Positions 2,314 to 4,674 of a stretch of 24,701 nt of DNA are shown piece after piece. This DNA is from Candidatus Woesearchaeota archaeon (lineage in GTDB: Archaea > Nanobdellota > Nanobdellia > Woesearchaeales > GW2011-AR4): NCBI GenBank assembly GCA_016181305.1, contig JACOZN010000016.1, positions 1 to 24,701 on the forward strand, written 5' to 3'. Below the pieces are notes generated by a model. That model had not been told where the DNA came from. It saw only the letters and a list, made by a program, of their open reading frames with translations, and did no database searches. A program made the position numbers and the translations under genes. How positions within the stretch are numbered: position 1 is the stretch's first letter; the number at the start of each line of letters is the position of its first letter.

Positions 2314-2592
2314 ATGGCCAATGTTGTTGTCACGCTTAGGGTGATGCCGCAGGATACAAGCGCAAATCTTTCTGAAATCGAGGCAAAGGCAAAAAAAGAG
2401 ATTGTTGATTTCTGCGATTCAAGGGAGTTTAGGGTAAGAGTTGAGCCAATAGCATTTGGATTGAAGGCTTTGGACATATTCTTTGTAATGGACGAGGGCA
2501 AGGGCAGCACAGAAGCCTTGGAAAAGAGGATAAGCCAGATTGACGGCGTTGAGTCAGTTGAAGTGACTGATGTAAGAAGGGCGATTGGCTAA
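2314..2592 (+). CDS. ef1b: Translation elongation factor aEF-1beta
   Basis: MANVVVTLRVMP...EPIAFGLKAL...IDGVESVEVTDVRRAIG. The ATG at 2314 lies 1 nt after the Zn-finger stop. Confidence 0.95.
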   Translation: MANVVVTLRVMPQDTSANLSEIEAKAKKEIVDFCDSREFRVRVEPIAFGLKALDIFFVMDEGKGSTEALEKRISQIDGVESVEVTDVRRAIG

Positions 2593-3314
2593 CTGAGCAA
2601 TTTCCATTCAAGCTCGGTTGGCGGTGCCTGCCAGCTTCCGCCTACAGCGGCAAGGGTGCCTTCCGCAGTCTGCACGCACAATGACTGCCCTGAATATAAA
2701 GTGGCGACTGCAGCATCCCCAATAATGCAGTCTTCTTTTTTAACATCTTTTACCGGCTTGTTCAAAGCCCTTATTTTTGCAGGCGCCAGTGCAGTGAAAT
2801 CTATATAAGTATCATACTTTCCTGAGAACAAATCGCTTCCGCTTGTCCTTATCTCGGTGAACTGGATATTGTCAAAATCATAATACATTGCAAAGCTGCT
2901 TAATTTAATCTTGCTGGAGTCCAGCATAGGCTCCGGCGCACTTTCAGGCTTGGGCGCATCAGCAGGTTTTTGCTTTTCTGCCGCCGCCGGCTGGGCTAGC
3001 GCAACCTCCACATATTCTGTTCTGCCAACCTTCACACCCACAGCCTTTTCAAAGTCTGCATAGCCCTCTTTTTTGACAATCAGGCTGTATGTGCCGACAG
3101 GAATATTGTACAGTGTTAAAGGCGTTTCGCCCTTAAGCTCGCCGTCAATATAAACCTGCGCTTGTCTCGGCTCTGAACTGACGGAAATGATTCCGGTGTC
3201 AGCAATCTCCTCTATTTCTTCCGAGAGCTTTTCCTTTGCCTGGCACCCGGCAATAATTAAAATAACGGCAAGGAATGACATAACACCTATGATTTTGCTG
3301 TTTTTCATTTTCAT
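2589..3314 (-). CDS. PEGA-domain lipoprotein
   Basis: Signal peptide ending IIAGC; PEGA motif 'ISVSSEPRQAQVYIDGELKGETPLTLYNIPVGTYSLIVKKEGYADF'; Pro/Ala linker; unknown C-terminal domain. Confidence 0.85.
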   Translation of the reverse strand: MKMKNSKIIGVMSFLAVILIIAGCQAKEKLSEEIEEIADTGIISVSSEPRQAQVYIDGELKGETPLTLYNIPVGTYSLIVKKEGYADFEKAVGVKVGRTEYVEVALAQPAAAEKQKPADAPKPESAPEPMLDSSKIKLSSFAMYYDFDNIQFTEIRTSGSDLFSGKYDTYIDFTALAPAKIRALNKPVKDVKKEDCIIGDAAVATLYSGQSLCVQTAEGTLAAVGGSWQAPPTELEWKLLS

Positions 3315-3331
3315 GCAATTACCAATGCAGC

Positions 3332-3580
3332 TATAGAGAATTTTGAAATATATTAATTTATTTAAAAATTGTTAATTTTTAAACAAAGCAAATCCAAGAT
3401 TTGCGAGTGCTCGAAAATCTGTGATTTTCGACATTTCTAAAACCTAACAGGTTTTCTCTATGTCAAAATTCTCTAAGAGAACTTTGAATGTCCTAAAAAA
3501 TTGCAATGCAATTTTTGGGAATGTCGAAAATGCTTTGCATTTTCGAACACCTCGCAATTCCAAGGACAAAGTTCTCTATA
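3332..3580. repeat. Intergenic multi-hairpin element with nested inverted repeats (MITE/REP-BIME-like)
   Basis: Six stem-loops, all with 3-nt loops (3361-3383, 3411-3431, 3439-3455, 3463-3487, 3496-3516, 3524-3546). Inner imperfect IR 3401-3437 / 3518-3557. Outer 14-bp IR with one mismatch, 3332-3345 / 3567-3580. Confidence 0.8.
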
Positions 3581-4655
3581 AAAACTTATTTATTTTCATT
3601 ATGCCAACCAGTTTCGGGTAGGGAATACCGCTTCTTAAAGAATGCCCGCTAAAATGAGTTTCGCACGCCTTATACCCAGACTTCATTATTTTCTCCATGA
3701 TTTCCTCCCTTTTCAGCAGGCTTTTTATGTTATTTTTACTGCATATATCATGCAGGTCGTAAAATCCAACAGCATTTATTCTTGACTCCTCTTTTATTGT
3801 TTTCAGGAATTTCATCAGCCCTTTGTTCTTGCTGAAATAACTGCTTTTTAATGCTTTACAATACATTGCATCAGCTAAGTTTTTATCCCATAAACCCCCA
3901 AGCCATATCGGGCCAGCGCCATTAAGCATCCCATGCTGCTTTAAGACGCTGTCAGACTTGCTTTTTCCCTTGTCATTCCTGAAAAAGACCCTCATGTAGT
4001 GCTCTTTTGAATACGAGAATATCGGAAAAAGCGCCTTGTCGTACTGAGCGCCTGCCAACTGGACTTTCCTTACCAGTATTCTCAGCCCAGTTTCATGCAT
4101 AATGGCGTCTTTTTTTGGAATTGCCCAGTATTTTCTCAAGCACGCTTTTGGAGCTGTGCCGCAAAGAGCTGAAGTGTCAGTAGCTGTTACGGCAAGAATC
4201 CCGTTTCTGGCAAGCCTCTTGCATGCAGCGTCAAGAAACGGGTTTGGGGTCCCAAACGGGTCTATATCAATATAGTCAAAGCCCGTTGAATTCAGCAGAA
4301 AAATATTGGCGTCTTGATTTTGTATGACTATTTTTGGGTTATTTTTATATTGGATATTATTTAACGCAAAGTTTTCTTTTATCAATTTTACTGCATTTTT
4401 ATCATAGTCATTAATGCAAATTCTTTTTATTTTGCTTGCACTTAGCTCCTTCAAGAACCTTATGCTTCTCACACCTGTTGCAGCCAGCGGGTCTGCCATC
4501 TGCATGCCGCTTCTGCCTGCGGAATCCAGCAACAAAACAGAAATGTCCCTGTTCAGGCTCATGGCAGGATTGTAAAAAACGCCCATGCTTCTTGACACCT
4601 TCTCCTCTTTTGGAATTTCAATTTTTGCCGAGCCTTCAATTATTTGCCTGTTCAT
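3576..4655 (-). CDS. trm1: tRNA (guanine26-N2,N2)-dimethyltransferase
   Basis: 'VFYNPAMSLNRDIS', 'DPLAATGVRSIRF', 'FDYIDIDPFGTP', 'TATDT..LCG', 'ETGLRIL'. Start probably ATG 4655, judged from TATA spacing; the ORF extends to 4673. Confidence 0.95.
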   Translation of the reverse strand: MNRQIIEGSAKIEIPKEEKVSRSMGVFYNPAMSLNRDISVLLLDSAGRSGMQMADPLAATGVRSIRFLKELSASKIKRICINDYDKNAVKLIKENFALNNIQYKNNPKIVIQNQDANIFLLNSTGFDYIDIDPFGTPNPFLDAACKRLARNGILAVTATDTSALCGTAPKACLRKYWAIPKKDAIMHETGLRILVRKVQLAGAQYDKALFPIFSYSKEHYMRVFFRNDKGKSKSDSVLKQHGMLNGAGPIWLGGLWDKNLADAMYCKALKSSYFSKNKGLMKFLKTIKEESRINAVGFYDLHDICSKNNIKSLLKREEIMEKIMKSGYKACETHFSGHSLRSGIPYPKLVGIMKINKFL

Positions 4656-4674
4656 ACGGGCAAAAAACCCCATT

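Follow-up and report, generated by a model that had tools for sequence, protein, structure and literature searches.

A two-layer repeat nested behind trm1 in Woesearchaeota, probably one copy of a non-autonomous mobile family

Positions 3332-3580 of the window (the whole stretch of 24,701 nt that was analysed, contig C14 of the genome referred to here as G000) carry a non-coding mobile repeat, which is a nested composite of two layers. The first layer is a 91-bp doublet bounded by conserved inverted arms, and the second is a set of hairpin modules lodged in the loops of this doublet. We find it reasonably likely that the region is one copy of a family of non-autonomous repeats with this two-layer organization, acting at the level of DNA and belonging to one genus of Woesearchaeota. 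The element is MITE/REP-like, i.e. a known kind of repeat in a new variant form. What we add here is the two-layer anatomy, a series of plain, expanded and empty orthologous sites, a TATA-box target, covariation that is restricted to Watson-Crick changes and a negative survey of transposases. The initial annotation of this DNA had described a MITE- or BIME-like array of equivalent hairpins. The first half of that description is sound, because the repeat has multiple copies with inverted repeats at their borders, differs between relatives and is made of modules whose stems covary, but the single array of equivalent hairpins has to give way to the nested composite.

The six hairpins on which that description was built are all present. 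Read from the sequence, they are H0 (3361-3383, stem of 10 bp), H1 (3411-3431, 9 bp), H2 (3439-3455, 7 bp), H3 (3463-3487, 11 bp), H4 (3496-3516, 9 bp) and H5 (3524-3546, 10 bp), with 3-nt loops and perfect stems except for one A.C mismatch in H3. The 3-nt loop of H3 is given as written, and this hairpin can also be read as a 12-bp palindrome with a 1-nt centre. Two hairpins had been overlooked: a seventh at 3388-3404, with a 7-bp stem and a 3-nt loop, and an eighth of which only half is left (3554-3566). The centres of H1 to H5 follow each other at 26, 28, 31 and 29 nt. ATGTC does stand ahead of H3, H4 and H5, as does GACAT after H1, and an inverted-repeat search recovered the long imperfect repeat around H1 and H5, which exists because these two are one hairpin type in opposite orientations. 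A shorter inverted repeat of 14 nt, 93% complementary, closes the region from outside (3332-3345 and 3567-3580).

The folding of the region is not a chance effect of its composition. The minus strand folded as RNA reaches -80.1 kcal/mol (z -8.2) and the plus strand folded as DNA reaches -60.3 kcal/mol (z -9.6), and in neither case was any of 200 dinucleotide shuffles as stable, which excludes chance. At the scale of the genome, G000 has 56 perfect hairpins with AAAA in the 5' arm (stem of at least 8, loop of 3-5), to be compared with 3-5 in locally shuffled genomes. The density of these hairpins is thus far above that of shuffled DNA, and the A-tract class is real and genome-wide. Only 20 perfect hairpins have the opposite polarity, with the T run first.

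The doublet consists of unit A (~41 bp: an arm, a loop of ~15 nt and an inverted arm), a single A/T, and unit B (~52 bp: an arm, a loop of ~22-25 nt and an inverted arm). Its four arms are all the same 12-nt motif, AGAGAAYTTTGA, in the order right-left-right-left. Position 7 of the motif is T in the A arms and C in the B arms, so each unit pairs perfectly with itself and pairings between A and B are mismatched. In an alignment of 43 plain doublets from 16 genomes the arms show almost no variation, and the loops are variable and form subfamilies that are common to several species. G000 has four copies of the plain 91-bp form, and its relatives have many. There are also single units with hybrid arms in G000 (at C6:620, C11:20050, C19:61504 and C21:70430), which are the expected leftovers of recombination between arms of the same direction.

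This plan can be followed along the region. After T3332, comparison of doublet flanks identifies AT at 3333-3334 as the left copy of a putative 2-bp target duplication. The outer (left) arm of unit A, AGAGAATTTTGA, lies on the plus strand at 3335-3346, and is followed at 3347-3359 by the left part of the original AT-rich, TATA-like loop, identical to that of the orthologous plain doublet of a relative, G015. A 101-bp insert (3360-3460) leads to the inner (right) arm of unit A on the minus strand (3463-3474), to the spacer at 3475, which is A or T in all doublets, and to the inner (left) arm of unit B, AGAGAACTTTGA, on the plus strand (3476-3487). The spacer and the two inner arms form H3, which is therefore the junction of units A and B. 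Beyond it, a block of ~76 bp (3491-3566) replaces the ~25-bp loop B. The outer (right) arm of unit B, on the minus strand (3567-3577), is followed by AT at 3578-3579, the right copy of the putative duplication, and by A3580. The outer inverted repeat corresponds to the two outer arms. All four arms were placed by motif search and by the aligned doublets, and the last one also by the inverted-repeat search.

We then consider how widely the element is spread. BLAST shows that the region is repeated piecewise in its own genome. The arm AGAGAAYTTTGA, with one mismatch allowed, has 49 matches at 13 loci in the 1.07 Mb of G000 (a MAG estimated at 78% completeness), and the region of the 3491-3566 block has copies 98-100% identical at C22:4730-4835, C19:23958-24057 and C2:58352-58450. 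When the 249-nt region was used as query, a match was found in 30 of the 36 congeners searched; elsewhere in the order the matches were weak and confined to 7 of 24 genomes of other families. The repeat is thus multi-copy in its genome and present in most of the congeners searched. The exact 25-nt junction pattern retrieved 100 stretches from a collection of species-representative genomes, mostly labelled Woesearchaeota/Nanoarchaeia, and had no match, as the exact doublet junction, in the viral contigs of IMG/VR. The remaining junction records are labelled Methanosarcinales and, in one case, Saccharibacteria (L156, L157, L159, L162, L163, L211 and others); as they carry the exact Woesearchaeal junction, they look like mislabelled or mis-binned MAGs. 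The genome G036 is near-complete (93%, in 8 contigs). It has 23+23 exact matches to the arm motif, versus 0 for a reversed control, and it carries four identical doublets (L078, L079, L081 and L082) and one that differs by 1 nt (L080). The presence of identical doublets at unrelated loci indicates a recent burst, which is a sign of mobilization in trans. The copies of the doublet are intergenic, and about half of them end at most 45 nt from an outward-facing start codon, with gene context taken from crude ORF calls. Gene starts lie on the A side in 17 cases and on the B side in 13, which reveals no orientation rule.

The locus in the window shows how a copy came to be where it is. The interval 3315-3575 separates two minus-strand genes, trm1 (ORF 3576-4673), which is upstream in the direction of transcription, and a downstream gene (2589-3314), whose product has a PEGA domain and, at its N-terminus, a signal-like segment. 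The stop codon of trm1, TAG at 3576-3578 on the minus strand, spans the edge of the element. The same arrangement is found at C2:58284, where a plus-strand gene ends within a B arm. On the other side, 18 nt (3315-3332, minus strand) separate the element from the ATG of the PEGA gene at 3314 and correspond, by comparison with the trm1-PEGA gaps of relatives, to the downstream remnant of a split promoter.

In G015, the closest relative in the collection (Trm1 93% identical), this site is occupied by a plain doublet, in the same orientation and between the same flanks. Aligned pairwise with G015:C30, the G000 copy has two differences: 101 bp inserted in loop A with exact boundaries (3360-3460), and ~76 nt (3491-3566) in place of a ~25-nt loop B. 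Among the relatives compared, which are a sample of the genus, nine more distant congeners with the same gene pair have an empty site, with a gap of 36-51 nt, their Trm1 being only 62-72% identical. The empty sites that the initial annotation proposed to look for between these genes therefore exist, in these more distant genomes rather than in the closest one. For two other doublets of G000, on C4 and C20, flanks were not conserved on both sides in the five relatives searched for empty sites. The empty-site relatives have a conserved A-rich BRE/TATA-like motif ~19 nt before the PEGA ATG, which probably represents a compact, near-leaderless promoter layout common across the genus. The A-rich motif with a terminal TATA box overlaps the end of trm1 in L031, L037, L039, L040, L047, L049, L050, L053 and L058. 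In G000 and G015 this TATA motif is split and the doublet is positioned inside the TATA box. The doublet probably arrived between trm1 and the PEGA gene in the common ancestor of G000 and G015. The corresponding gaps of G064 (L042) and G020 (L055) contain unrelated GC-rich hairpin repeats of 210-350 nt, which suggests that the junction behind trm1 is a recurrent landing place for different families of repeats.

The flanks of other copies give information on the target. Among 46 doublets from 17 genomes, 38 have TAT on the left and ATA on the right, two have TAA/AAA and one has TAC/ACG; further AA/AA copies exist outside these 46. The AA and AC variants change on both sides in direct, not inverted, register. 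This pattern suggests that insertion within T-A-W-A would duplicate 2 bp (A-W, once A-C), a reading that comes from the flank variants of the 46 doublets and not from a clean, high-identity pair of filled and empty sites. Duplication of TA, in the style of IS630/mariner, was considered and rejected, since the AA and AC variants fit only a 2-bp A-N repeat beside the arms.

The second layer is made of modules of ~50 bp with two hairpins each, built from A-tract/T-tract stems and 3-nt loops. Three units could be defined from expanded doublets. The first, M0, consists of H0 and H2 and is the only module in loop A of copies in G036, G028, G035 and several MAGs. The second, M1, is a 50-bp unit (3384-3433, plus strand) made of hairpin a (3388-3404) and hairpin b (H1). 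In G000, G014, G007 and others it lies precisely nested between the two hairpins of M0, H0 and H2, and its absence from the M0-only copies of G036, G028 and G035 fixes its borders. The 101-bp insert in loop A is thus M0 enclosing M1, with exact borders and no duplication relative to G015:C30, and the M0+M1 composite recurs at other loci in G014, G007 and further MAGs. The third unit is an H4-type module with a second hairpin, which lies either in loop B or within the right arm of unit A. It is found without any reversed M1 in G000 C20, G015:C22 and L230, and with a reversed M1-type module (H5 and a further hairpin), untruncated, between its two hairpins in the version of G000 C2 and G014. The block at 3491-3566 consists of H4 followed by the reversed M1-type module, here H5 and the half hairpin 3554-3566. 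A deletion shortened it and took with it the first base of the right arm, so that the B unit of the window is a deletion derivative of the C2/G014 version. No flank duplication was found at module insertions in the expanded doublets compared. Across 91 distinct doublets, unit A is plain in 73 and expanded in 15, and unit B is plain in 74 and expanded in 7. Distinct loci of separate species carry the same composites, so it is the entire expanded doublet that spreads.

Not all modules sit in doublets. Elsewhere they often form chains, whose period is 26-31 nt. In G000, A-tract hairpin chains or pairs of this kind lie at C18:62820-62940, C19:77390-77500, C16:23400-23500, C2:34590-34710 and C4:2510-2620, those on C19 and C16 being the H4-type module reversed, with common short flanks. 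Hairpins of this kind are also found within genes. The DUF192 gene of G000 (C15:577-1026) contains an in-frame chain of 108 nt, or 36 codons, with four abutting A-tract hairpins (C15:670-777). The chain is absent from the orthologues in G013 and G014, the join is clean and without duplication, and the arrangement resembles the in-frame insertions of Rickettsia palindromic elements. A membrane protein of 1091 aa that contains charged repeats has an M1-type module and one further hairpin (C15:6357-6437) in frame close to its N-terminus; this array is conserved in G004 and G011, and the same array is present in L135 and L134.

We propose the following explanation for these observations. The doublet would insert whole into sites of the form T-A-W-A, usually TATA boxes, and duplicate 2 bp, being moved by a trans-acting enzyme that is not encoded beside it. 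In the ancestor of G000 and G015 it would in this way have split the TATA box of the PEGA-gene promoter behind trm1. The REP-like modules would enter the loops of the doublet, and one another, without duplication: at this locus M0 would have entered loop A, M1 the inside of M0, and H4 and the reversed M1-type module loop B, before the deletion. The expanded doublet would then most likely have taken the place of the plain one at the trm1 site when copies at different loci recombined through their conserved arms. The strict Watson-Crick palindromes would be kept by a constraint on DNA or by a repair process, not by a transcript. Effects on the host may be side effects; possible candidates, from the layout of the sequence, are the altered spacing between trm1 and the PEGA gene, a replacement TATA in loop A, and a role as terminators for the T runs after H4 and H0.

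The search for the enzyme that moves these repeats was negative in the families considered. Neither G000 nor G017 (89% complete) has a hit to Y1_Tnp (PF01797), DDE_3, DDE_Tnp_1, rve or the TnpB zinc ribbon, and Y1_Tnp and DDE_3 were not found in G015 and G035, which both have many copies of the element. Across 41 congeners, the presence of Y1 or DDE_3 showed no correlation with the element. The arms were absent from the IS630-like, IS200-like, IS4/5-like and rve loci fetched from relatives, and no arm pairs at the distance of an IS were found in G036, G013, G016, G015 or G010, where the largest span is ~230 bp. These negatives are limited by the incompleteness of MAGs and by IS copies that drop out of assemblies. 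We infer that the doublet is mobilized in trans by an enzyme encoded away from the element. We consider it rather unlikely that the two layers represent two undescribed archaeal mobility systems. The first would be an element that integrates in TATA boxes with a 2-bp duplication, carries a substitute TATA in its loop and depends on an enzyme outside the IS families searched. The second would be an archaeal counterpart of REP/RPE, with modules that home to the feet of hairpins, even in frame within genes; an unrecognized enzyme specific for hairpins would copy them, or else fold-back (snap-back) synthesis, and templated correction would keep their stems perfectly Watson-Crick.

Among its options, the initial annotation had named the substrate of an HUH nuclease, as for REP/RAYT or the ends of IS200/IS605. 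Under this explanation the modules would be REP/BIME-type or IS200/IS605-derived (PATE-like) sequences, moved as single-stranded hairpins by a RAYT-like Y1 HUH enzyme with TGTC as its cleavage tag. The modules do insert without target duplication exactly beside existing hairpins, as in single-strand transposition, the hairpins of H1/H5 type do carry TGTC, as in the bacterial CGTC/TGTC REP superfamily (PMC3733652), and Y1 genes are present in 23 of the 41 genomes of the genus. However, no Y1 was found in the element-rich G000, G015, G017, G035, G016 and G025 (a negative that MAG incompleteness weakens), the element had no match in the Y1-rich G031 and G033, and six Y1 loci fetched from relatives had neither these hairpins nor the arms. 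Furthermore, TGTC is found at only 9 of 148 A-tract hairpins genome-wide, close to the background of 2% per 8-mer, and GTAG is lacking. As a family-wide tag TGTC was thus rejected, and ATGTC, which had been proposed as part of a general motif, turns out to be a feature of one hairpin type (H1/H5). The proposed link with HUH nucleases found no support in this survey, and we regard it as unlikely.

The conservation of the hairpins indicates on which molecule they are maintained. We collected 36 distinct copies of M1 from 20 genomes and aligned them with MAFFT, which gave an unsupervised but short alignment. Hairpin a alone has 18 different 5'-arm sequences in the 36 copies, with a mean perfect stem of 6.9 bp versus 3.3 bp in shuffled sequences. 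In the alignment, 97.2% of the cells are paired and 9 of the 18 pairs show double-sided changes. The stems contain 39 double-sided cells versus a single one-sided (G.U-type) change. The covariation score was reached in none of 500 shuffles, and pairing falls to 22-61% when the partner columns are slid by 1-3 positions. Covariation among homologues is therefore present in M1. The earlier deduction that self-complementary cores imply selection on structure holds as far as the covariation of the stems, but Watson-Crick-only changes could come from templated correction of hairpins rather than from selection. The near absence of G.U intermediates, the strand symmetry of the palindromes, the variable loops and the mixed orientation together indicate a constraint at the DNA level or a templated correction, not RNA. 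The module sequences point to hairpins or cruciforms that would be constrained or corrected as DNA.

These results bear directly on the possibility that the block is a structured 3'-UTR of trm1 (a terminator or stabilizer), a leader of the PEGA gene, or both, and that its folding is conserved as RNA. Such a role would account for the stability of the minus-strand fold and for the location of copies between genes, and runs of 5-6 T follow H4 and H0 in both directions, oligo-T being the archaeal termination signal. Yet RNA stems are normally rich in wobble intermediates and those of M1 have a single one; the loops are not conserved and the stems read the same on both strands; both modules and doublets have mixed orientations relative to neighbouring genes; and G015 lacks the hairpin modules at the same trm1-PEGA site. 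A search of Rfam at a permissive E-value gave at best 25.7 bits for a threshold of 60, with all E-values above 0.2, so that no described family comes near its gathering score. The structured 3'-UTR, which the initial annotation had listed among its options, is thus disfavoured and has in our view a slim chance of being the main explanation.

The least convincing explanation, which we consider improbable, takes the arms for operators bound by a protein of the host, or the doublet for a portable promoter or insulator cassette kept by selection, with copies spread by recombination and not by transposition. In its favour, the arms hardly change and the loops drift between species with only 62-72% identity in Trm1, and the two inner arms together make a 12+12-bp palindrome, as is typical of dimeric regulators. 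In addition, loop A resembles a TATA box, and the end of many copies lies 10-45 nt ahead of a start codon. Against it, presence and absence at trm1-PEGA, direct 2-bp flank repeats and four identical copies at unrelated loci in G036 are signatures of insertion, the neighbouring genes are unrelated, the copies follow no orientation rule and no candidate regulator is linked to them. The high identity of doublets across species with diverged proteins could nevertheless reflect a host function of the arms.

The preferred explanation, a mobile repeat with two layers, can be compared with known systems of repeats. As in MITEs, the element has terminal inverted repeats (93% complementary outer arms, with arms conserved in 43 copies), and it is dispersed and polymorphic for insertion, as shown by the 13 loci of G000, the nine empty trm1-PEGA sites and the near-identical copies of G036. 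A cognate IS with the same ends was not found in five relatives or at the transposase loci fetched. The Correia elements (CREE) of Neisseria and the modular BOX of pneumococcus are bacterial MITEs with structured cores at promoters and terminators. The element resembles them in its size of ~90-250 bp, its terminal inverted repeats, its AT-rich targets with a flank repeat of 2 bp, the lack of an internal transposase, and tens of intergenic copies close to gene starts and stops with modular length variants. It differs from them in having no sequence relation, in being a doublet of two units whose four arms are identical and which are joined by 1 nt, in its archaeal host, in a flank repeat that is A-W in T-A-W-A and not TA, and in the lack of a cognate IS even in a near-complete genome.

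The modules, for their part, recall the REP, BIME and REPIN of E. coli and Pseudomonas, with clustered palindromes that form mosaics in alternating orientation (H1 and H5 are inverted, and chains occur elsewhere), covarying stems, variable linkers and many intergenic copies. Unlike these, they have A/T-rich stems and 3-nt loops, no GTAG at the 5' foot of the palindromes and no RAYT gene in G000, at 78% completeness. Subterminal hairpins matching a resident IS200/IS605, as expected of PATEs, were not found. Archaeal MITEs and PATEs, such as the SM elements of Sulfolobus and the PATEs of Haloquadratum, derive from identifiable IS families. The doublet shares with them the status of non-autonomous repeat, and differs by having no parent IS among the families and loci searched. 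A 2024 MITE census (PMC11602168), a catalogue of unnamed elements, gives 105 MITEs per Mb for a Woesearchaeal genome, which is among the MITE-richest archaea; Woesearchaeota are thus rich in such elements. The nearest described relatives in the form of the modules are the CGTC/TGTC-tagged REPs, which include the Rickettsia palindromic elements and the Neisseria dRS3 and are known from five bacterial phyla (Di Nocera et al. 2013, PMC3733652). The likeness to these REPs includes stems of 8-9 bp starting with A/T pairs, short loops, (C/T)GTC on the H1/H5 type, the lack of a dedicated transposase, and the occurrence of dimers, clusters and in-frame copies in protein-coding genes (PMC3733652). The modules differ from them in that the tag is on 9 of 148 hairpins, the loops have 3 nt instead of 4-5, with stems of 7-10 bp, and the CCA tail is missing.

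REP/REPIN-type hairpin repeats are reported to be undetected in archaea. We observe REP/REPIN-like behaviour, with clusters, nesting, covarying stems and copies within genes, in a DPANN lineage, in element-rich genomes where the enzyme that accounts for it in bacteria was not found. The passage from an empty site to a plain doublet, then to one module and to nested modules is a natural series in which the movement of modules can be followed. The elements also matter for the annotation of Woesearchaeota MAGs, where they provide stop codons, in-frame peptide segments and contig breaks. Finally, with its copy in the TATA box behind a housekeeping gene, the locus offers a case in which the rewiring of an archaeal promoter by a repeat can be tested.
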